The notes under the pieces are model-generated. The model did not search any database, had not been told where the DNA came from, and worked only from the letters and a program-made list of their open reading frames with translations. Below, piece after piece: positions 149-31,819 of a stretch of 64,000 bases of DNA. Both the position numbers and the translations under genes were made by a program. Origin of the DNA: Chloroflexota bacterium (GTDB lineage: Bacteria > Chloroflexota > Dehalococcoidia > Lucifugimonadales > JADFKI01); assembly GCA_027623195.1 (NCBI GenBank), contig JAQBUT010000012.1, positions 1 to 64,000 on the forward strand, in the 5' to 3' direction. Positions within the stretch are counted from its first letter, which is position 1, and each line of letters begins with the position of its first letter.

Positions 149-181
149 AAGGGGCGGACCAGTTGGTCCGCCCTTTTTTTT
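149..181 (+). terminator. Intrinsic terminator for an upstream gene mostly outside the window
   Basis: GGGCGGACC-AGTT-GGTCCGCCC perfect stem followed by a T8 run. Confidence 0.85.
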
Positions 182-489
182 GCCCAGGTCGCGAATTACA
201 AGCCACGATTCTCACTCACGTATATGTTCAGTCGGAACCTGCCTGAATAGCCTCTGAAACCGCTCCCGAATTCCTGAGCAGAAATGTATACGTTCTGGGG
301 TTCGATGTTGTAGGATTAGGACCGAAAATGTCCGTGGATGGGCCGCCGATATCGAAATACCTTTACCACGTATCTACCTAATGCACGGCAATGACCGTCG
401 CTTTTGAACCAGGCGTGAACAGCGCCGGCTGGTGGCCATTTTTCATGGCCGAAGATATTGTGAAATCCCGTTGCAGATAACGCTGTAGA

Positions 490-834
490 GTGGTTGTGAA
501 AATGGTTCATGCTGACCCTAACCGGTGGGTCTGGTGGTACAAGCCTACGGAAACCCCCCAGAAGGGCCTTTACAGCGTAATGGTGCCTGGTCGTTTGCAA
601 GATGATGGCCGGACCGTGCATGGCGCCATTGCATTTTTCAAGGAGTTCGGTCGGGTGATGTTCGAGGGGAATGCTGTGCTGGACTGCCGTGCGGGTGGCA
701 CTGGAGCGATTCTATTTGCGCCAGGGGAGCTAATCAATTGTCCCAGATGTATGGCCGTAGATGCGCCGATTGTGTTTGATAGGAAGGTGGTTCGAGAGAC
801 TTTTGGTCCTCAGCCGCCGGTGGTGTTAAGCTGA
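490..834 (+). CDS. Hypothetical protein (114 aa)
   Basis: GTG-start ORF with protein-like composition and a CPRC motif; no family recognised. Confidence 0.5.
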   Translation: MVVKMVHADPNRWVWWYKPTETPQKGLYSVMVPGRLQDDGRTVHGAIAFFKEFGRVMFEGNAVLDCRAGGTGAILFAPGELINCPRCMAVDAPIVFDRKVVRETFGPQPPVVLS

Positions 835-861
835 GGGGCGTTTTTGCCTCTTCTGTCCTCT

Positions 862-1242
862 CTAGCCTGTAGACGCCAGGAGGCACCTCTCGACGGCGTG
901 AAGGCGCGCCAAGAGCTCTTCCTCCGGCATAGCCTGAGACACACAAATATCCGCTCCCTGCAATAGCGCATCCGGTGCGAATTCGCCTTCTCCACATACA
1001 GTCACTGCAATGATGTTATCTGTCAAAAGCCGCAGCATTGGAAGAAGGTTTTGGTTCTCTATTGGCATGACGCTGGGAAGTATGATTACGTCCGGATCGA
1101 CATCGGCGATCGTGGTAAAGAACTGGTCGACATCGTCTTCCTGGAAAATGCTGTAGTCGTGTCGGTCCAGCAGCTCTGCCAGTTCGAAACTGAATAGGCC
1201 ACCATCGTCTAGGATGCAAACAGTCCGGTTAAATGACATCAT
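862..1242 (-). CDS. Stand-alone atypical (pseudo-)receiver domain protein
   Basis: Receiver-fold pattern (ILDD, PDVIIL, ALLQGAD, EELLARL), but the phospho-acceptor Asp position is Pro and the conserved Lys is Gln. Confidence 0.7.
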   Translation of the reverse strand: MMSFNRTVCILDDGGLFSFELAELLDRHDYSIFQEDDVDQFFTTIADVDPDVIILPSVMPIENQNLLPMLRLLTDNIIAVTVCGEGEFAPDALLQGADICVSQAMPEEELLARLHAVERCLLASTG

Positions 1243-1269
1243 TTTATTAAGGCCTTGAAACCCCTGAGG

Positions 1270-1506
1270 CTAATGCCAGCCAACAATTACGCCGTGGTCG
1301 CGCTGTATGAGGGAAACGCGGTGCCCCTCGTCGCACCTGGTCTTTATGACCGATTTGCTGTTACCAGAAAATGGAGACAGGGCCAGTGACCGCCCTCCAC
1401 AATATGGACAGTTGATCTTGTAGACCATGCGCTCGCGGACTCGACGTATTTCGATGGTTTCCGTGGAGAGGTTCCCGTACTTAACAAATCTGGTTTTTGT
1501 AACCAT
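1270..1506 (-). CDS. Small zinc-ribbon-like hypothetical protein
   Basis: CPYC ... CDEGH metal-ligand pattern; co-oriented and directly upstream of the receiver gene. Confidence 0.5.
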   Translation of the reverse strand: MVTKTRFVKYGNLSTETIEIRRVRERMVYKINCPYCGGRSLALSPFSGNSKSVIKTRCDEGHRVSLIQRDHGVIVGWH

Positions 1507-1931
1507 TATCTTCTTCCCCGAAAAAATAGGCGACGTAAGTAAATATTTTGGCTAACCGTTTTGGGCTTGAGTTGTTAAAAATCAACTGGAACGACTAGGC
1601 CAAGTACCCAGCATTTTAAGAGACAGAGGTGGGATTTACAATCCATTTAGGTGCAAATTTTATACTATTTTAGTTTTAATTCAGATGTTTTGTTCTAATA
1701 GTATTCTAGCTTAATCTGAATAGCATTTCGAATGGCGGTAGGGCTTGCTATGCCGTAGTACTTTCCGGGGTTCACCGAGATTAATTGGGCGCAAACCGGG
1801 GCTATTGTAAAATTTCGACATCCGTCAGGTATGGCTCATTTGCGAGGGATGGCTTGGGACCAGATGAGATTGCAGCGGGTATCACCTTTAAGAGCCGTGG
1901 CCACGGTATAAAGGCAATTCTTGATGATGCC

Positions 1932-1960
1932 TTTAAGTCGTCATTTTGTTGTGCTATACT
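1932..1960 (+). promoter_or_regulatory. Putative sigma70 promoter with extended -10
   Basis: TTTAAG-17 bp-TATACT, with TG one base before the -10 hexamer (TGcTATACT). Confidence 0.45.
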
Positions 1961-1964
1961 CTCC

Positions 1965-2085
1965 GCAGAGGGTGTTCGCACCCCCTACAGGTCCCACCAG
2001 TCAATGTGTCTCTTCCGGGTCAAGAACTGCCGCTTGGGCTGGTGGGCCTATTTAACCCTCCCCCCAGCCGTCCTCTATTTTTTGC
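1965..2085 (+). ncRNA. Candidate structured small RNA (unassigned)
   Basis: Starts just after the promoter; GGGTG-TTCG-CACCC tetraloop hairpin, then a long stem CCCACCAGTC/GGCTGGTGGG, then a T-rich end. Confidence 0.4.
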
Positions 2086-2231
2086 TTTCTTATTTGTTTA
2101 GGCTATCGCTAACTTTCTAGTGCCCACTTTCTCCCAGTAGAGGCTCTTTGTCGCCCGCGTATAAGGGATTTTTGCGTGCGTAATTTTATGCCTCGTTGGG
2201 TAAAAAGGAAGAGGTGTGAGGAGGCCTTTGG

Positions 2232-2288
2232 ATGGCTAAAGAAAGAGGACCTGGAGAATTGGGTCCCAATAAAAAGATGAGCAGGTAA
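2232..2288 (+). CDS. Putative 18-aa peptide MAKERGPGELGPNKKMSR
   Basis: AGGAGG Shine-Dalgarno at 2219-2224 ahead of the ATG; the stop codon lies inside the 5' arm of the following hairpin. Confidence 0.25.
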   Translation: MAKERGPGELGPNKKMSR

Positions 2289-2319
2289 AATGACGGCGGA
2301 CCGCCGTTACCTGCTCATC
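2268..2319 (-). terminator. Long hairpin, probable minus-strand intrinsic terminator
   Basis: GATGAGCAGGTAA/TTACCTGCTCATC 13-bp inverted repeat with an inner ACGGCG/CGCCGT stem; followed by TTTTTATT on the minus strand. Confidence 0.6.
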
Positions 2320-2466
2320 GCCTCTTCCGGGTCAAGAAAAAGGCTTCCGGGACTGGTGTACGCGACCTTACCGGTCGGTCTGGTAAGGATAACACACGCC
2401 ATTAGACTTTTCTAGTTTTAATTTAATATTTCATTCAATTGAAGTATGTTTCGTTGAATTTGCCAT

Positions 2467-3096
2467 TCAGGCGATGTCTCCGAAAGATTTCGGAACAATA
2501 TCGTCGTGAAATGACAACTGGTCGGCAACGTCTTCGTGTCCTCTATCCGGAGGCAATTCCATTCCCATGCCGTCCGCCACTCTCACCAGGTAATTGAACA
2601 TGCCGGTGATATGCACTATGTCGACGATATCTTCGTCGCTCCAGCCGAATTCCCGCAGGTTGTCCACATGGCTTTGAGATGTGCTGGAAGGCGTAAAAGT
2701 TAGAAACTCCGCGAACTCAAGCATGGCAATCTGCTTCTCTGTCAGCCTAGCCTCTCGGTAGTTCTCACCAAACTGCTGCGCCAGTTGGGAATCGGGGTCC
2801 TGTTCGTGCAGAGCCTCTGCATGGGCGGTTGTTCAATACTGGCACTTGTTTAGGGCCGACACTACGGTGGCGATCATCTCTTTCTCGGCACTGGTCAGGC
2901 CTGATTTGCTCCTCATGACCGTGCGTAGGTGGGTCGCAAATGTTTCCATAATTTCCGGGCGAATCCCGTTTACGGCAAGCACGTTAGGCAGCTTTAAGTG
3001 GTGCCGGAGAATGGCGTCGTAGCCCAGCTTTATGTCTTCAGGCGCCTCGTCGTATTTGACGGTTCGTACGAATGCCAAATTCCCTACCTCGGCCAT
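2467..3096 (-). CDS. AhpD/carboxymuconolactone decarboxylase-family peroxidase-related selenoprotein (CxxU)
   Basis: ORFs 2833-3096 and 2467-2724 are in the same frame, separated only by one TGA (2833-2835) and 36 sense codons. Readthrough gives VSALNKCQY-U-TTAHAEAL, the AhpD CxxC...H motif with Sec replacing the second Cys. Confidence 0.85.
2807..2835 (-). promoter_or_regulatory. Bacterial SECIS element immediately 3' of the Sec codon
   Basis: UGA-11 nt-UGCAGA-GGC-UCUGCA: a stem with a G-initiated loop 17 nt after UGA, resembling the E. coli fdhF SECIS apical stem (UGCAGGUCUGCA). Confidence 0.7.
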
Positions 3097-3437
3097 TTAG
3101 TTATTAGAATAGGCATAATAATAGGGAATCCCTAAAATATTAACAATAATATTAAACAACACTCAAAAACAGTGAATTTATTTAAAATACGAATAGCGTG
3201 ACTAATTATTATTATTAAGACGGTTCAATTCCAAAAGAATCCTGAAAAGAGTCGTTTATCGGCGCATAAATCAGATATATATTTTCATGAAATTGGTTTG
3301 TCTTTACTCAAATTAGTCCCGTGGAAAACCTTTTTGCTCGTGTTTGCTAGGTAGCGGCGTTATAATGACACCCGTGTTGCAGCGTCCAGGACCTCCTGCA
3401 CCTCAAGCACACACAACTACAAGTTAAAGGACAGACT

Positions 3438-4442
3438 ATGCCCGACAAGCCTTATCTCGCTATCACTATGGGAGACCCCGCAGGAATAGGCCCAGAGGTC
3501 ACAGCCAAGGCACTTCAGGACAAGTGGGTGTACGACCACGTTCGGCCATTCGTTGTAGGAAGCACCGCTGCTATGAGCGATGCGCTTCGTCTTATTGGCG
3601 CGCCGGGGTCGGCCAGCCTGGCCCATACCCTGGAGGACGTGAAAGGCGAGTACGGCACCATCGACGTGCTGGATATGGAGAACCTGGATTACGGCTCTAT
3701 TGTGCCCGGCAAGATCTCTGCCGAGGCGGGCAGGGCCGTAGTGGAGTGGATACTTCGGGCCGGGGAGTTGGCTAGCTCCGGGCAAGTCCAGGCCATAGCA
3801 ACGGCGCCGATTAATAAAGAAGCCTGCAAGCTAGCGGGCCACACGGACATCGGCCACATGGAAATATTCCAGAGCCAGACTGGCGCCACACAGGTGGCCA
3901 CAATGCTCACGGCTCGGAACCTGCGAGTTGTGCATCTAACGACGCACAAGTCGGTAAGGGTTGCCTGCGACTTCGTGACCAAAGATAACGTGCTGGCTAA
4001 AATCAAGTTGACCGACGAATGCTTCAAGGAGTGGGGCTTCCCCAATCCGCGCATCGGCGTGGCAGCGTTGAATCCGCACGCCAGCGACGGCGGCCTGATC
4101 GGCGACGAGGAGGCCAATCACATCGCGCCGGCTGTGGCGGCTGCCCGAGAGATGGGAATCGATGCCACTGGCCCTGTGCCAGCCGACAGCGTTTTTCCTC
4201 AGGCCATTGATGGAAAATACGACGTAGTGCTGGCCATGTACCATGACCAGGGCCATATTCCAATCAAGGTTTACGACTTCTCCAAGAGCATTAGCGTGAA
4301 CCTGGGACTTCCGTTTATAAGGACATCTGTGGACCACGGCACGGCCTTCGACATTGCGGGCAAGGGCATTGCCGATGCAGAGAGCATGTTGGAGTGCATC
4401 AAGGTGGCCGTATCGCTGGCCAGCGAAAGCAAGCTGCCTTAG
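3438..4442 (+). CDS. pdxA: 4-hydroxythreonine-4-phosphate dehydrogenase PdxA (could be the PdxA2 catabolic paralog)
   Basis: MGDPAGIGPE, ALNPHA, AMYHDQG and RTSVDHGTAFDIAGKG motifs. Confidence 0.93.
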   Translation: MPDKPYLAITMGDPAGIGPEVTAKALQDKWVYDHVRPFVVGSTAAMSDALRLIGAPGSASLAHTLEDVKGEYGTIDVLDMENLDYGSIVPGKISAEAGRAVVEWILRAGELASSGQVQAIATAPINKEACKLAGHTDIGHMEIFQSQTGATQVATMLTARNLRVVHLTTHKSVRVACDFVTKDNVLAKIKLTDECFKEWGFPNPRIGVAALNPHASDGGLIGDEEANHIAPAVAAAREMGIDATGPVPADSVFPQAIDGKYDVVLAMYHDQGHIPIKVYDFSKSISVNLGLPFIRTSVDHGTAFDIAGKGIADAESMLECIKVAVSLASESKLP

Positions 4443-4444
4443 AG

Positions 4445-4496
4445 AGCAGTCAGACATTGGCTACCAGGTATTAGCATTATTCGCTGACTGCTGATT
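4445..4496. repeat. Intergenic palindromic element AGCAGTCAG...CTGACTGCTGATT (copy 1)
   Basis: Inverted arms at 4445-4453 and 4484-4492; related copy at 45845-45892. Confidence 0.65.
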
Positions 4497-4522
4497 ACTG
4501 TGAGCTAACAGCCGAGGAAACT

Positions 4523-5323
4523 ATGAAATTATCATTTATTGGCGGCGGGGTGATGGCGGAGGCCATCATAGGCGGCGTTATCGAGGGCGGAATCGCCTCA
4601 CCTGAAGAGGTGAGGGTTGGAGAGCCCGTAGCGGAACGCCGTGACGCAATGGAAGAGACGTATGGCCTGAAGGCATACGCCTCCAACAGCGACGTGCTGG
4701 AGGGCGCCGACCTGGTGGTCTTGGCCGTAAAGCCTCAGATCCTTCCGTACCTGTTGCCTGAGCTACAGACGGCGCTCAGACCGGAGCATACAGTGGCCTC
4801 CATTGTCGCTGGCGCTACCATGAAGACGTTGACTGAAGGCCTGATGCATAAGGCTGTAATTCGGATCATGCCGAACACGCCGGCCCAGATTGGCAGCGGC
4901 ATGAGCGTGTGGACGGCTTCTGATAGCGTGACCGAGGCGGCCAAAAAGGCTACGTCGCAGATACTGCGCACGTTGGGCGAAGAGGTTTACGTACCTGATG
5001 AGAAGCTGATTGATATGGCAACTGCTGTTAGCGCCAGCGGTCCTGCCTACGTGTTCTTGTTCATTGAGTCCATGATTGACGCCGCAGTGTACCTGGGTAT
5101 GGCCCGAGACATGGCTCGTCAATTGGTTTTGCAGACTGTCCTGGGCAGCACCGAGTTAGTCAAGCAGACGGGTCGCCATCCGGCCGACTTGAAGGACATG
5201 GTGACATCGCCGGGGGGTACGACTATCGAAGCGCTACGTTCGTTCGAAAGTCGTGGATTTCGGTCTGCGGTTTTCGAAGGCATCATAGCCGCATATGAGA
5301 AGTCAAAGGCGTTGGGGAGTTAG
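4523..5323 (+). CDS. proC: Pyrroline-5-carboxylate reductase
   Basis: IGGGVMA, LAVKPQ, RIMPNTP, SASGPAY and VTSPGGTT motifs. Confidence 0.95.
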   Translation: MKLSFIGGGVMAEAIIGGVIEGGIASPEEVRVGEPVAERRDAMEETYGLKAYASNSDVLEGADLVVLAVKPQILPYLLPELQTALRPEHTVASIVAGATMKTLTEGLMHKAVIRIMPNTPAQIGSGMSVWTASDSVTEAAKKATSQILRTLGEEVYVPDEKLIDMATAVSASGPAYVFLFIESMIDAAVYLGMARDMARQLVLQTVLGSTELVKQTGRHPADLKDMVTSPGGTTIEALRSFESRGFRSAVFEGIIAAYEKSKALGS

Positions 5324-11819: not shown

Positions 11820-11852
11820 AAAAAGAGGCGGCCATTTGGCCGCCTCTTTTTT
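11820..11852. terminator. Bidirectional intrinsic terminator
   Basis: AAAAAGAGGCGGCCA-TT-TGGCCGCCTCTTTTTT between convergent genes. Confidence 0.9.
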
Positions 11853-24635: not shown

Positions 24636-25337
24636 ATGTCGGACGCGACGGTCCTGGTTGTCGAGGACGAAGAGAACATCTTGGAAGCCTTGCGCTACAG
24701 CTTGGAAAGGGAAGGCCATACTGTCTATACGGCAGTGGACGGCGAAGAAGGCCTGAATCTCGCTCGACGTATCGATCCAGACCTGGTTATCCTGGACGTT
24801 ATGTTGCCGAAGATGGATGGCTTCGAAATTTGCCGAATACTTCGCGGCGAAACGGATGTCCCCATAATAATGCTCACGGCCCGAGGCGAGGAGATCGACC
24901 GTATTGTTGGCCTGGAACTGGGAGCAGACGATTACGTCACAAAACCTTTCAGCACTCGCGAGTTCATGGTCAGAGTCCGCAACATGCTGAGGCGGGCAAG
25001 GTTGTCCGATAACGTCGAATCAAGCTCCGCAGGCGAAGAAAATCTCGTAGCCGGGAATTTGGAAGTCGATCTGACCAGCCATGTGGTCCGCCTGGATGGC
25101 GTTGCGGTGGATATGAAGCCAAGGGAGTTTGATCTGTTGGCCCTGTTGGTAAAAAACTCAGGTCGTGCCTACAGCCGGGACCAGATATTGCAACAGCTCT
25201 GGGGGCACGACTATTATGGCGACACCCGAACGGTTGACGTGCACGTTCACTGGCTTCGGGAGAAGATTGAGCCGCAGCCGAGCAAACCTCAGAGGTTGGT
25301 TACCATACGCGGCGTTGGCTACAGGTTCGACAGATGA
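24636..25337 (+). CDS. phoP: OmpR/PhoB-family response regulator (PhoP-like)
   Basis: Intact receiver (VVEDE, LDVMLP, TKPF) and winged helix (RTVDVHV, TIRGVGY); adjacent to phoR and pst. Confidence 0.85.
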   Translation: MSDATVLVVEDEENILEALRYSLEREGHTVYTAVDGEEGLNLARRIDPDLVILDVMLPKMDGFEICRILRGETDVPIIMLTARGEEIDRIVGLELGADDYVTKPFSTREFMVRVRNMLRRARLSDNVESSSAGEENLVAGNLEVDLTSHVVRLDGVAVDMKPREFDLLALLVKNSGRAYSRDQILQQLWGHDYYGDTRTVDVHVHWLREKIEPQPSKPQRLVTIRGVGYRFDR

Positions 25338-27103
25338 GATTACCTCATTCCCTTCACTGGCGCATCTCTCTCGCCTACACGGCGCTCATATTCTTCACCA
25401 TGGGAGCTGTAAGCCTTTATCTAGTGGATTTCGTTCGCGACGCGTTCTTGGCGGACCTGCAAATTCGATTGCAGCAGGAAGTCAGCCTGGTGGCCGAATC
25501 GACATCGGGGTTCGTCGGTGACGAATCTGATAGCGGTGGGCTTCAACTCGTCGTCCAGGATATGGCTGAGATCATCAAAGCACGAGTGACGATAGTTGAT
25601 GCAAATGGATTGGTATTGGCGGACACGGCGGAGGATCCCGACCCGACGGGAAACCTAAGGCGGCGCCAGGAGATTCGGGAAGCCCTAAACGTGGGCGTCG
25701 GTAACGCCATCCGTGAGGAATCGGCATCCGATGGCGAGGTCGTCTACTCCGCCTTGGCTATACGGCATAACGGCGTGGTTGTTGCGGTTGCGCGGGTAGG
25801 CATTCCCACGTCTGATGTGAATGCAAACGTAAATCGGCTTATTACGACTATCCTGGTATCCGCTTTAGGGGTTGCTGCACTTTCCGTGGGCCTGGGCTTC
25901 ATGCTATTTCGTCGGACCTCCCGATCTGTGCAAAGGGTTGCTGAGGGCGCGAGACGTTTGGCTGATGGAGACCTGGAACATAGAGTTCAAACCTCATCCT
26001 CAGATGAGACTAAGGAATTGGCTGAGGCCTTTAACGGCATGGCCAATACCATCCGCAGCGTTGTCGGCGACCTATCCAGCGAACGAAATAAGCTGACGGC
26101 TGTGTTAGACACCATGGCGGATGGTGTGGTGGTGCTGGAGGCTGACAGCGAGGTCAGCCTTATGAATCGAGCGGCCGAGTGGCTTCTCGGCGTGGGCGCT
26201 AAAGACGCGGTGGGCAATCGTCTGGTAGAGGTGGTCCGAGACCACGAAATCCAGGAGACGGTTCAGAAGTCTATGGAGACTGGCCAGATATGGCAGATCG
26301 AAGTGGAGCTTCGGCCAAGTCGGACATTCCTCAGTGCGATAGCGACGCCTCTTTGGGCTGTTGATGGCACAACAGACGCCTCGGGTGTGCTGTTAACGCT
26401 CCATGATCTAACCCGCATTATGCAGGTCGAAACGACGCGAAAGGAGTTCGTGAGTAACGTTTCGCACGAACTCCGTAGTCCGTTGGCTTCTATCAAGGCG
26501 ATGGTTGAGACGCTTGAAGACGGCGCTATGGATGAGCGGAACGTTGCCGTGGACTTCCTTCGGCGGATTAACCGCGATGTGGACCGTATGAACGGTATCG
26601 TTAATGACCTGCTTGAGTTGTCCCACCTAGAGAGTGGCTACGTGCCGCTTCACCTGGCGCCAGTGGACCTCAAGCCTCTGGTGGAGGAGATCGTGGAGGA
26701 TTATCGGCGGTCTCCTCTTGGTAATGACCTGGAGATTAGTGTGGATTTTCAAGGCGCTACGTCAATGGTTACTGCCGAGGACGAAAAGCTACGTCAAGTG
26801 CTGGTTAACCTGATCGAAAACGCCATCAGGTACACCGTTAAAGGCAAGATCACGGTATCGGTTTCGGAAGAAGGGCGGTTCCAAAAAGTACGGGTGACTG
26901 ATACGGGAACAGGCATAGCTAGGGAGCATTTGCCCCACGTTTTCGAGCGGTTTTACAAGGCTGATAGGTCCAGGAGAGACGGCGGTACGGGGTTGGGTCT
27001 GGCCATCGTGAAGCACATAGTGCAGTCTCATAGAGGAGAGGTCAACGTCGAGAGTGAAGAGGGTGTAGGCAGTACCTTCGAATTCACCATACCCAAGGGT
27101 TGA
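25334..27103 (+). CDS. phoR: PhoR-like sensor histidine kinase (HAMP-PAS-HisKA-HATPase)
   Basis: FVSNVSHELRSPL, NLIENAIRY, DTGTG and GGTGLGL motifs. Confidence 0.88.
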   Translation: MRLPHSLHWRISLAYTALIFFTMGAVSLYLVDFVRDAFLADLQIRLQQEVSLVAESTSGFVGDESDSGGLQLVVQDMAEIIKARVTIVDANGLVLADTAEDPDPTGNLRRRQEIREALNVGVGNAIREESASDGEVVYSALAIRHNGVVVAVARVGIPTSDVNANVNRLITTILVSALGVAALSVGLGFMLFRRTSRSVQRVAEGARRLADGDLEHRVQTSSSDETKELAEAFNGMANTIRSVVGDLSSERNKLTAVLDTMADGVVVLEADSEVSLMNRAAEWLLGVGAKDAVGNRLVEVVRDHEIQETVQKSMETGQIWQIEVELRPSRTFLSAIATPLWAVDGTTDASGVLLTLHDLTRIMQVETTRKEFVSNVSHELRSPLASIKAMVETLEDGAMDERNVAVDFLRRINRDVDRMNGIVNDLLELSHLESGYVPLHLAPVDLKPLVEEIVEDYRRSPLGNDLEISVDFQGATSMVTAEDEKLRQVLVNLIENAIRYTVKGKITVSVSEEGRFQKVRVTDTGTGIAREHLPHVFERFYKADRSRRDGGTGLGLAIVKHIVQSHRGEVNVESEEGVGSTFEFTIPKG

Positions 27104-27306: not shown

Positions 27307-28296
27307 ATGTTGATTTCATTAATTGGGCGAATTTTCAAAAATCCTTCCAGCCGATTGGGCACAGCCACCCTGCTAGTCCTCATACTTTCTGCTGGCATGG
27401 CATGTGGCGGGTCCACTGGGACGGGTGCCGGTGATGGCACAGGCCAACCCTCATCAGGGTCTGGCGTTAGTGGTCAAATAGAGATAGATGGTTCTAGCAC
27501 CGTGTTCCCAATTACCGAAGCTGTCGCAGAGGAGTTTCGAAATAGCCATCCAAACGTGCAGGTTAACGTGGGCGTTTCTGGGACGGGCGGAGGGTTCAAA
27601 AGATTTATAGAAGGTCAGATTGACATCAACGACGCGTCGCGGCCCATCAAGCCCTCGGAATCGGGCACTGCTGCAGAAAATGGTGTTGAGTACCTGGAGT
27701 TGGAGGTCGCCATAGACGGTCTCGCGGTTATGGTTAGCCCTCAGAACGACTTCGTGGAGTGCCTGACTGTGGAGCAGCTAAAGACCATCTGGGAGCCGGG
27801 CAGCTCGGTGAAAACATGGAATGACGTGGACCCTACCTGGCCCAACAATGGGCTGAATCTTTATGGCCCAGGGACTGACTCCGGTACTTTCGATTACTTC
27901 ACAGAAGTAGTAATGGGCGAGGCTCAGGCGAGTCGACCCGATTACTCGGCCAGCGAAGACGACAATGTTCTGGTGCAGGGTATTGGCGGCGACCGCAACG
28001 CGTTGGGTTACTTTGGGTACGCCTACTACATCGAAAATGTCGACAAGCTAAAGATAGTGGCCATTGACGCGGGGGCCGGTTGCGTAAAGCCGACTGCCGA
28101 GACCATCGAGAACGGCAAATACCAGCCACTATCCCGCCCGCTATTAATTTACATCAACAAGGCAAGTCTGGAAAAACCTGACGTAAATGCTTTCCTGAGA
28201 TTCTACATGGAGAACGGCGCCGAATTGGCTGAGGAAGTTGGGTACATCCGTTTGTCAGAGCAGGAATATAAGAACAACATTGCCCTGTTACAGTAG
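27307..28296 (+). CDS. pstS: Phosphate ABC transporter substrate-binding lipoprotein
   Basis: [23 protein letters not shown] and YQPLSRPL motifs; lipobox GMAC. Confidence 0.95.
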
Positions 28297-28350
28297 TTTT
28301 CGGACAGCCCTCAATGTTTTGATACCCCAAAGGGAATTGAGCGAATAATC

Positions 28351-29313
28351 ATGGAGAGCTCTCTGCCTACGGTAGGGGAATCCAGCCGAGTGGCTAACTC
28401 GGCCAATAACGTTACACCTGCCTTCAGGCGCAGGCGGCGCACTACTATCGAAGGTAGTGTCGTTAAGTGGATATTCTTCGGCTGCGCCTTCATATCCGTA
28501 CTCACTACCATTGGCATAGTATTTACTCTCCTCTCCCAGGCTATAGGCTTCTTCTTCGAGGTATCCGTCTGGGAATTCATATCCGGCACCCGCTGGACTC
28601 CTATACTCAAACCCCAATCTTACGGCGTCCTACCTCTTGTCGGTGGAACCCTGCTGGTGGCAGTTATTGCTGCGGCCGTGGCGTTGCCGTTAGGTCTTTC
28701 GATAGCGATCTTCCTCGCCGAATACGCCCCGGGCAAGGTGCGGCGTATCGTGAAGCCGACATTAGAGGTGCTGGCGGGTGTACCTACCGTTGTATACGGC
28801 TACTTTGCTCTTACGTTCGTTACGCCAATCCTGCGGGGGGTGTTCCCTGACATGCTTGTCTTTAACGCGCTGAGCGCAGGACTGGTAATGGGAATCATGA
28901 TTATTCCGATGGTCTCGTCGTTGAGCGAGGATGCCATGGTGTCAGTGCCACGCTCGCTGAGAAACGCTGCCTTTGCCCTTGGAGCGACGCGATTCGAGGT
29001 TAGCCTGCGAGTGGTGGTACCGGCGGCGTTGTCCGGTATCGTAGCCTCTTTCATACTGGCAATCTCCCGTGCCATTGGCGAAACCATGCTGGTCACCATA
29101 GCCGCTGGTGCGACGCCTAGGCTCACCGGGAATCCACTGGAGAGCATACAGACTATGACTTCCTACATCGTGCAGTTGAGCCTGGGCGAAGCTGCACATG
29201 GGTCGCTAGAGTTCAACACTATATTCGCGGTTGGACTTTTGCTCTTTTTGATGACCCTGGTGATGAATTTGCTTGGCTTCTGGGTGGTGCGGCGATGGAG
29301 GATGAAGTATTGA
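28351..29313 (+). CDS. pstC: Phosphate ABC transporter permease
   Basis: [12 protein letters not shown] and SRAIGETM motifs; operon position. Confidence 0.95.
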
Positions 29314-29451
29314 TTTTTTGGGATTTTTGGCCAAGGTACGCTGCCTTGGCTTGCCATTGTGGAATGATCTGATGCAGAAGACATCGTGGTTCTATTGTTG
29401 GGGTAGATGGCAGGGCAATGTTGCTTTGGCCGACCCTTGTAGAAAAAGCTA

Positions 29452-30330
29452 ATGCAAACGACTTCGCAGTTCAACCAGAGGCTGCCGCTTAGAAAGGCCG
29501 TAGGCACGGTCCTTTATTTCGTATTTCTGTCGGCCGTGCTTGTGGGCATCGTCGGACTTGTGGTCCTGTTGACTCAGATACTCATACAGGGAATTCCCTG
29601 GTTGAGCTGGCACTTCATTTCTGGTTTTCCCTCTCGACATGCGGAGGAGGCCGGGCTGCTGTCGGCGCTGACCGGCACAATTTGGCTGATGTTCCTCACG
29701 GCGGTTTTCACGGTGCCCGTTGGTGTGGGCGCGGCCATTTACCTGGAGGAGTACGCCCCCACTAACTGGGTGACGAATCTTATCGAGATCAACCTGTCCA
29801 ATTTGGCCGGAGTGCCTTCAATCGTTTACGGACTGCTAGGTTTGGCTGTGTTTGTGCAGTTCCTTGGCCTGGGCCAAACGTTAATGGCAGGCGCAATGAC
29901 GCTGGCTTTGTTGGTGCTTCCCATCGTTATCCTGGCCTCGCGGGAGGCCATTCGTGCCGTGCCGGATACCCACAGGCTGGCGGCATTCGCTCTGGGGGCC
30001 GACAAGTGGCAGGTAATACGGGGAGTGGTCCTGCCTTCTTCCGTACCGGGTATATTAACGGGAACTATATTGGCAATGTCCAGGGCTATCGGTGAGGCCG
30101 CCCCGATATTGGCTATAAGCGCGCTGGTTTACCTGACGTTTGTCCCTACAAATCCTTTGGATAGATTCACGGTGCTGCCTATACAGATATTCAACTGGGT
30201 GTCCCGACCGCAAGACGAGTTCCGAGGGCTGGCGGCGGCTGGCATCATCGTGTTGCTGGCCATACTTCTTTCCATGAACGCCCTGGCAATTCTGCTCAGA
30301 GACCGCTATCAGGTGAAGGCCGATGACTAA
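29452..30330 (+). CDS. pstA: Phosphate ABC transporter permease
   Basis: [19 protein letters not shown] and RAIGEAAP motifs. Confidence 0.95.
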
Positions 30331-31102
30331 CGACAACTCCGACATTGTTCTCAGCGCACGGGACCTTTACGTGCACTACGGAGACTTTCTGGCGCTTAAA
30401 GACATAAACTTGGACATCAAGCGGCATGGTATCACTGCACTAATCGGTCCGTCCGGCTGCGGCAAGAGCACGTTGTTGAGATGCTTTAACCGCATGAACG
30501 ACCTGGTGCAGGACGCTCGTATAGAGGGCGAGATCATGTTTGAGGGGTACAATCTCTACTCGCCGGAGAGGGACGCCACGGAGATACGCTCTCGCATTGG
30601 AATGGTCTTTCAGAGGCCAAATCCCTTCCCCAAGTCCATATACGACAATGTGGCTTTTGGACTGCGCATAAATGGCTACACCGGGAACATGGAAGAGGCA
30701 GTAGAGCGATCCCTGAAGCAGGCAGCTCTGTGGGAAGAGGTTAAGGACAGGCTGAGCCGAAGCGCGCTGACCCTGTCCGGTGGCCAGCAGCAGAGGCTTT
30801 GTATCGCCAGGGCGTTGGCGGTGCAACCCGAGGTCATTCTCATGGATGAGCCTGCTTCGGCTCTAGACCCGATAGCCACGTTGGCTATCGAAGAGTTGAT
30901 TAGGGAACTGAGTAACGATTACACCATCCTTATAGTCACCCATAACATGCAGCAGGCGGCCAGGGTTTCCGACGAGACGGCATTCCTCATGGTCAATGAC
31001 GATCGCGCCGGTTATCTGGTAGAATTTGATGCAACCTCACAGATTTTCACCAATCCCAGCGACGAGCGAACTGAGGCTTATATAACAGGTAGATTTAGCT
31101 AA
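30323..31102 (+). CDS. pstB: Phosphate ABC transporter ATP-binding protein
   Basis: [22 protein letters not shown] and YITGRF motifs. Confidence 0.96.
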
Positions 31103-31153
31103 TCCACTGGTCCATCATGGACGGCCCTGGCAATTTAAAAAGGAGTGCTCATC

Positions 31154-31819
31154 ATGCCGAGAACAGATTTCGACAGAGACTTGAGAATGCTACAGGATGA
31201 GTTACTGCTGCAGGGCAGCATGACGGAGAAGGCCATTGCCAAGTCCATAACCGCTTTGAAAAGGCGCAACGCCGAGGTGGCTCAAGAGGTCATTGATGAG
31301 GATGACATCATCGACCAGAAGCGGTTCGAAATCGAGGAGCGCTGCATCGATTTAATCGCCACGCAGCAGCCGCTGGCCGGGGACCTTCGTATTCTCATTA
31401 CAGTTTTGCATGTGACCGGCGAGCTGGAACGTATGGGCGACTATGCCGAGGGTATCGCCAAGATCAGCCTTATGATGGGCAACGAGCCTCCCCTCAAGCC
31501 TCTTATCGACATTCCCCGGATGGCCGACAAGTCCATGGATATGCTTCGCCGTAGCCTGGACGCCTTCGTTAACCGAGACGTGGTGGCCTCCATGGGTATC
31601 ATGACGGAGGACGACGAGATCGACGATCTGTACGAGCAGGTATTTCGAGAACTGCTGACGTACATGATGGCCGACCCCGGGGCGGTAAAGCGGGCCACGC
31701 ATCTGTTGTGGGTCGCGCACGACCTGGAGCGCATAGCAGACCGCACCACCAACATCGCCGAGCGGGTAATCTATCTGGTTACAGGCAAGCTGACAGAGGC
31801 AAGCACCCCGGCTGATTAG
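31154..31819 (+). CDS. phoU: Phosphate signalling protein PhoU
   Basis: QQPLAGDLR, ELERMGD and LERIADR..NIAE repeats. Confidence 0.95.
   Translation: MPRTDFDRDLRMLQDELLLQGSMTEKAIAKSITALKRRNAEVAQEVIDEDDIIDQKRFEIEERCIDLIATQQPLAGDLRILITVLHVTGELERMGDYAEGIAKISLMMGNEPPLKPLIDIPRMADKSMDMLRRSLDAFVNRDVVASMGIMTEDDEIDDLYEQVFRELLTYMMADPGAVKRATHLLWVAHDLERIADRTTNIAERVIYLVTGKLTEASTPAD

Follow-up and report, generated by a model that had tools for sequence, protein, structure and literature searches.

AhpD-like selenoproteins with a CxxU motif were described in 2005 from the Sargasso Sea, where the accessible part of the report counts 27 of them (PMC1088965), and 299 AhpD-like selenocysteine (Sec) sequences are given for the GOS data in the accessible part of a second paper (PMC2398784). 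This agrees with a first-pass annotation of the DNA studied here, which had stated that such proteins are known from marine metagenomes. A 2026 review lists, in the accessible part of its text, an "AhpD-like protein, TIGR01926, CxxU" among high-confidence predictions not experimentally verified (PMC13188914). The corresponding part of the BSepDB paper credits two named Dehalococcoidia with 49 and 46 selenoproteins (PMC13326102), and records bearing those names were found to hold homologues of our gene with the TGA and the hairpin described below (L144 and L143). Our gene is a member of this family catalogued since 2005, and selenoprotein-rich Dehalococcoidia have, according to these partial sources, already been reported; a literature search for SAR202 together with selenocysteine surfaced only unrelated papers.

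The closest relatives of known structure are Cys-type peroxidase-related proteins, namely Mlr4105 (3C1L), YP_296737.1 (2PRR), YP_614459.1 (2PFX), the Deinococcus radiodurans AhpD-like protein (6K40) and a D. geothermalis protein (2OYO). They have a C-x-Y-C-x3-H motif in common with our protein, their second position being Cys and not Sec, and the physiological substrate and reductant are not established for most of them. As far as the accessible text goes, a D. radiodurans AhpD-like mutant is sensitive to H2O2 and the CxxC of the protein is required (PMC8945050); to judge from the titles, 6K40 is probably this protein. Mycobacterium tuberculosis AhpD (1KNC/1GU9) and Pseudomonas aeruginosa PA0269 (2O4D) display a helix-turn-helix and a Glu/Cys/x/Cys/His relay at equal spacing, and PA0269, with the same motif, reduces H2O2 weakly, as stated in the accessible part of its description (PMC3141380). 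Our protein matches PA0269 with a Z-score of 16.8 and 21% identity, and M. tuberculosis AhpD with a Z-score of 12.3 and 11-12% identity, with a tyrosine in place of His132 of the latter. M. tuberculosis AhpD also differs in that no PF10417-type AhpC (AhpC C-terminal domain) was found in our genome, which is 87% complete and in which this is not proof of absence. Bmp8 (6OHI/6OHJ) and human Sestrin2 Sesn-A have the fold in common (Z 17.6 and 12-16, respectively) at 16-19% identity to our protein, and their known reactions differ.

With regard to the AhpD-like selenoprotein family (COG2128; "AhpD-like 1"), the locus agrees in passing TIGR01926, in its CxxU, in its in-frame UGA followed by a hairpin, and in coming from aquatic bacteria. 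Unlike the catalogued family, it belongs to a Dehalococcoidia sub-clade with a 25-residue C-terminal tail and is one of three Sec paralogues in a single genome, and the copy studied here is weakly constrained. We consider it likely that the locus is one AhpD-fold gene whose UGA very likely specifies Sec, and that it encodes a CxxU enzyme predicted to reduce peroxides or disulfides, in a redundant and probably still working copy.

The gene and its interrupted reading frame

The gene lies in a window of 64,000 nucleotides (contig JAQBUT010000012.1, assembly GCA_027623195.1) from a Dehalococcoidia genome of 3.0 Mb. Translation of the minus strand from 3096 to 2467 gives 209 residues with a terminal TGA and a single internal stop, the TGA of codon 88 (2833..2835), which occupies the second Cys position of a CxxC motif (NKCQY-TGA-TTAH) and is predicted to encode Sec. 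A gene caller sees an ORF of 87 aa upstream of the TGA (2833-3096) and another of 85 aa downstream of it (2467-2724), which, as the first-pass annotation had recognized, constitute one frame broken only at this codon. The read-through protein reaches 137.3 bits against TIGR01926 (cut-off 81.8), whereas the separate halves score 44.6 and 45.1 bits. The TIGR01926 match spans residues 9-180 and leaves a 25-residue C-terminal tail, and a Pfam CMD match runs across the TGA (residues 47-98). It had also been anticipated that automated pipelines would split such a gene; in 37 of the 42 database matches the coverage of the query does not exceed 57%, and many have their start immediately past the TGA. 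Three other profiles fell short, namely AhpD proper (TIGR00777; 21.4 bits against a cut-off of 191.95) and two other AhpD/CMD selenoprotein families, NF041238 (CFYUT; 66.1 against 175 bits) and the YciW-related NF053654 (22.9 against 310 bits).

Residues are numbered here from ATG 3096, the alternative start that gives 209 aa. Translation probably begins at TTG 3078 (codon 7), since a Shine-Dalgarno-like GAGGT (3086..3090) is located 7 nt upstream of it and since it aligns with ATG, GTG or TTG starts at all 16 loci compared, 15 of them besides our gene. The coding sequence would then run over 2467..3078 on the minus strand and encode 203 aa, with Sec at residue 82. The selenoenzyme proposed in the first-pass annotation is thus retained, whereas its length of 209 aa is probably six residues too great.

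The motif reads E73-x11-C85-Q-Y87-(TGA)88-x3-H92. Cys85 (2842..2844), the opening residue of the CxxU, is the same in all 73 other rows of a 74-row alignment, and His92 (2821..2823), whose codon shares the first base of the hairpin, is a histidine in 72 of these 73. Glu73 (2878..2880) is assigned to the AhpD proton relay by its spacing, which equals that of Glu36/Cys48/Tyr50/Cys51/His55 in the accessible description of PA0269 (PMC3141380). The gene is solitary and divergent from a pdxA-like gene, with synteny kept at L068, L106, L133 and L148. The neighbourhoods of the gene, of its C24 paralogue and of a sister clade were examined, and no substrate or functional link emerges for our gene; scans for promoters and terminators gave weak consensus matches (4 against 1.7 and 4 against 1.3 expected, respectively).

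Elsewhere in the window, PhoB/PhoR-like two-component genes (24636-27103) precede phosphate transport genes (27307-31819), both assigned by Pfam matches; the latter are ordinary and probably form a pstSCAB-phoU operon. The same short inverted-repeat-like loose ends (CATGAGTCATCC...) were seen at 151-174 and 11822-11849 in the contigs of a second study, which suggests a small repeated element at these positions.

Evidence for selenocysteine insertion

The hairpin UGCAGA-GGC-UCUGCA noticed in the first-pass annotation was located at 2821-2807 on the minus strand, with 11 nt separating the UGA from its first base. It is a predicted bSECIS (2807..2821) with a 6-bp stem and a GGC loop 17 nt past the UGA. 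The bSECIS model, in the accessible part of its description, asks for a loop of 3-9 nt with a G within its two opening positions, a stem of 4-16 bp, a spacing of 16-37 nt and a minimum free energy of at most -7.5 kcal/mol (PMC13188914). The hairpin falls within these constraints (3-nt GGC loop, 6 bp, 17 nt), its energy of -7.8 kcal/mol (45 nt) being only just inside the limit. A lower stem found in L010, L011, L033 and L034 (-13 to -18 kcal/mol) is missing from it. As the folding energy alone is unremarkable (z = 0.62 against shuffles, 66 nt) and does not single out the element, the hairpin was judged by covariation and by Cys controls.

Across 28 loci, 97.6% of 168 cells are paired, with 14 two-sided changes in three of the six pairs; none of 500 shuffles paired as highly and slid positions pair at 40-76%, the 28 loci being related sequences and the shuffle counts not being probabilities. 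The loop G, a synonymous third codon position, is invariant in all 28. Six pairs plus the loop G at the same offset were found at 28 of 38 TGA loci and at none of 19 Cys loci, against a chance level of 71 in 85,137 genomic TGA triplets (0.08%). Four of the 540 predicted ORFs ending in TGA possess this combination, and all four are Sec candidates: our gene, the two paralogues and a rhodanese in which TGA occupies the active-site position.

Within the AhpD-like family, the distance between hairpin and UGA differs by clade. A wider set of 97 distinct TGA contexts has the loop at 17 nt in 51 cases, at 24 nt in 25, at 33 nt in 14 and nowhere in 7, the 24-nt and 33-nt offsets having been picked after the sequences were inspected; one of 24 Cys loci was positive in this three-offset test. 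The fixed-offset test alone leaves 53 of 86 TGA loci devoid of a hairpin, most of which have one at another offset. In the 33-nt form, the stem changes on both sides (by eye). The relatives with a spacing other than that of our gene include the L069-L142 and L116-L157 clades. The 24-nt clade adjoins GMC oxidoreductase and luciferase-like monooxygenase genes and frequently stands back to back with another AhpD-like gene of the Sec type, a PNPOx-like gene lying between the two. Some of its members are decaying, with TGA replaced by TTA, extra stops and a dN/dS of 0.8-1.0 in two pairs.

The genome holds the machinery for Sec, as the first-pass annotation had implied. Profile searches recovered selA (554 bits), selB (334 bits) and selD (385 bits), all above their cut-offs, and a tRNA-Sec with a UCA anticodon was found above its cut-off (63.4 bits), so that all four genes (selA, selB, selC and selD) are present; the selD itself carries one in-frame TGA. 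The UGA codon is not reassigned, since RF2 is present, TGG encodes Trp152 of our gene and TGA terminates 540 predicted ORFs.

Homologues with Cys opposite the TGA were expected from a Sec codon and homologues with Trp from another reading; the homologues show TGA or Cys, and never Trp. Among 41 related genomes, 24 have a match, and 29 of the 35 matches contain one TGA. It falls in the column of codon 88 at all 28 relative loci checked. A phylum-wide sample of 29 loci gave 10 with TGA and 19 with Cys, and of 99 further loci the 97 that cover the column comprise 86 with TGA, 6 with Cys, 3 with TTA and 2 that are misaligned, with no TGG. Of 18 TGA-bearing genomes searched for selA, 17 gave a match, and the remaining one is an assembly of 86% completeness; among 14 genomes whose best match has Cys, selA was detected in 11. 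The three genomes that are 97-100% complete and lack selA all carry the Cys form. Metagenome and genome contigs queried with a single protein returned no relatives, whereas an alignment of C-terminal halves did find some. Both halves of the gene are under purifying selection, because dN/dS is 0.11-0.18 on each side of the TGA in comparisons with L010 and L068.

The notion that the TGA is something other than Sec, be it a true stop (of a split gene or through a nonsense mutation), a codon that an alternative code reads as Trp or Gly, or the product of faulty assembly, has been largely refuted by these data, and we give it hardly any weight. It could draw on the hairpin energy, which does not exceed that of shuffles, and on an in-frame ATG at 2724 that could start the second piece. 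A first piece on its own would be devoid of His92, however, and the TGA is conserved down to about 30% identity, where it alternates only with Cys among intact genes. A different code is contradicted by RF2, by the TGG of Trp152 and by the final TGA of our gene, which corresponds to TAG in L068. An assembly error is excluded because the TGA and hairpin recur unchanged in contigs from four runs of the second study. UGA88 is very likely decoded as Sec.

Of the paralogues, those on contigs C24 and C11 share the TGA at its position and one on C12 has Cys there; the genome totals 11 CMD matches. A second, short CMD-family gene with an uninterrupted frame is located within the window (G000:C44:61600-61854, minus strand). 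A rough read-through scan, which will have missed some cases and whose 40 candidates were compared with NCBIfam, points to about 20 likely selenoproteins in the genome (L167-L188). These include selD, three AhpD-like proteins, two sulfurtransferase-type rhodaneses, GrdA, a GrdB-like, an FtrB-like and an OsmC-like protein, a thioredoxin-NHL protein, five Prx/TlpA-like proteins, an antiporter-rhodanese fusion, a thiolase-fold protein and a UXX-star protein (L188) whose TGA is upstream of the model match. Two further UxxC proteins with no NCBIfam match (L172 and L173) are presumably DUF3179 members. The TGA between urease gamma and beta (L185) and that at a hydrolase/SDR junction (L191) are best taken for ordinary stops that separate neighbouring genes. 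The TGA at codon 27 of an OmpR-type response regulator (L189; G000:C4:58512-59249, plus strand), with coding-like sequence on both sides, is either a nonsense mutation or a case of read-through.

The thiolase-fold gene (L171; G000:C56:36671-37834, minus strand), which lies outside the window and adjoins a DUF35-like ORF, has two in-frame TGA codons and is far more novel than our AhpD-like gene. In 35 close homologues, its second site is TGA throughout, and its first site is TGA in 17 and Cys in 18. A class-wide search matched 86 of 401 genomes, with one or two TGA codons in most best matches. "Thiolase" is absent from the accessible part of the 2026 catalogue of 119 selenoprotein families (PMC13188914), and literature searches returned nothing relevant.

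Predicted chemistry of the CxxU enzyme

The AlphaFold2 model, obtained with the 74-row alignment and with Sec read as Cys, has a pLDDT of 89.7; a single-sequence model (pLDDT 45) was set aside. The best structural matches are 3C1L, 2PRR, 2PFX, 6K40 and 2OYO (Z 19.8-21.6, with 3C1L at 21.6; 28-35% identity over 180-188 residues), followed in order by Streptococcus pneumoniae AhpD, Bmp8, PA0269, Sestrin2 and M. tuberculosis AhpD. The modelled protein combines the AhpD helical fold with the E-x11-C-x2-C/U-x3-H relay, comprising E73, C85, Y87, U88 and H92.

In M. tuberculosis AhpD, the second Cys is the nucleophile. Its position varies within the fold, Sestrin2 retaining and using only the first Cys according to the accessible text (PMC4674687). 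From where Sec is placed, the nucleophile of our protein would be expected at the second Cys position, unlike that of Sestrin2. SelB-GTP-Sec-tRNA would bind the GGC loop 17 nt downstream, and UGA88 would thereby be read as Sec. In the resulting protein, the Glu73/His92 relay would hold Sec88 as a selenolate, which may attack an alkyl hydroperoxide or a disulfide, and a selenenyl-sulfide would form when Cys85 resolves Sec88. Re-reduction, which closes the cycle, could come from a lipoyl arm or from a thioredoxin-like or AhpC-TSA-domain protein; the genome has 5 biotin/lipoyl-domain (PF00364) matches and 15 AhpC-TSA-domain matches, six of the latter with a TGA of their own. Peroxidase activity is suggested by the family and by the modelled fold.

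A different function can be envisaged: instead of disposing of peroxides, the Sec enzyme could act on a small molecule and strip it reductively of a halogen or other leaving group, a type of reaction for which the AhpD-fold debrominase Bmp8 employs two cysteines. Bmp8 superposes on the model (Z 17.6, rmsd 2.9 over 181 residues) and matches the family profile with an E-value of 1e-9. Sec is the catalytic residue of deiodinases, which counts in favour of this function. A catabolic setting is offered by the luciferase-like monooxygenase, GMC oxidoreductase and PNPOx-like genes adjoining the sister clade, and by the acyl-CoA dehydrogenase gene adjoining the C24 paralogue. For Bmp8, debromination via oxidation of its cysteines to a disulfide has been proposed, in the accessible part of the report (PMC5577590). 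Nevertheless, Bmp8 is only 17-18% identical to our protein, against 28-35% for the peroxidase-related proteins, which also score higher by structure and by profile (E-value 1e-50 or better), and the genes identified beside the window copy include none for halogenation or dehalogenation. Dehalogenation is improbable. We see an equally slim chance that SAR202/Dehalococcoidia expanded this Sec AhpD-fold family as deiodinase-like reductive dehalogenases for marine halogenated organics and not for peroxide defence. The reduction of peroxides or disulfides is the function we favour.

Constraint and redundancy of this copy

In a strain about 99% identical, the gene shows five non-synonymous and no synonymous differences, namely K14Q, F150I, M177L, M179V and a stop at codon 185 (Arg185; 2542..2544). 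In the neighbouring genes over 174-4945, the same strain has 14 differences, of which 12 are synonymous and 2 non-synonymous (5/5 against 2/14 non-synonymous; Fisher p = 0.0018). The stop would drop the 25-residue C-terminal tail and spare the TIGR01926 domain (9-180). The orthologue clade has a support of 100 in a quick tree, which was used only for grouping into clades; its 131 rows each have 130 residues or more, and the frameshifted orthologue is not among them. The clade includes P0002, with Ser at the Sec position and Cys at the His position, and P0003, with Gly at the Sec position. The syntenic orthologue L035/L106 has His92 replaced by Asp and a frameshift, seen in several contigs. Among the five other orthologue lineages, three are frameshifted or have lost Sec, and L010 and L068 are intact. 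The dN/dS of the gene is 0.10-0.17; the same pairs give lower values for pdxA (0.03-0.04) and proC (0.06-0.08), and that of the C24 paralogue is 0.07-0.09. To judge from these comparisons, the window copy is apparently the least constrained of the three Sec-type paralogues and so probably a redundant back-up.

The same figures could mean that the copy retains its Sec codon by descent, as a redundant duplicate now in decay after a recent escape from purifying selection, and that the C24 or C11 paralogue supplies the working enzyme. All five strain differences alter the protein, one of them as a stop, and Met177 and Met179 of the window allele depart from the Leu and Val of the family. Loss of Sec, His or frame in three of the five other orthologue lineages, the weakened hairpin and the two intact Sec paralogues in the genome point the same way. 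In the window allele, nevertheless, the frame is open, none of the five motif residues has been lost and the 6-bp stem is perfect, and the long-term dN/dS of the gene is well under 1. Moreover, the strain's stop is located beyond the TIGR01926 domain, where many homologues end, and five changes are few. We regard decay as rather unlikely, though less so than dehalogenation, and favour a redundant copy that probably still works.

The finding is mostly an annotation fix: the clade is stored in public protein sets as half-length pieces, so that searches under-count it. The replacement of TGA by Ser, Gly or Leu codons, together with the frameshift, provides a small natural example of the loss of a duplicated selenoprotein. 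As the family has been predicted since 2005 and, in the accessible text of its catalogues, is still given as experimentally unverified, a test could make use of any soluble member of 200 aa; for expression, the better-conserved C24 paralogue (G000:C24:87745-88347) would be the safer choice.
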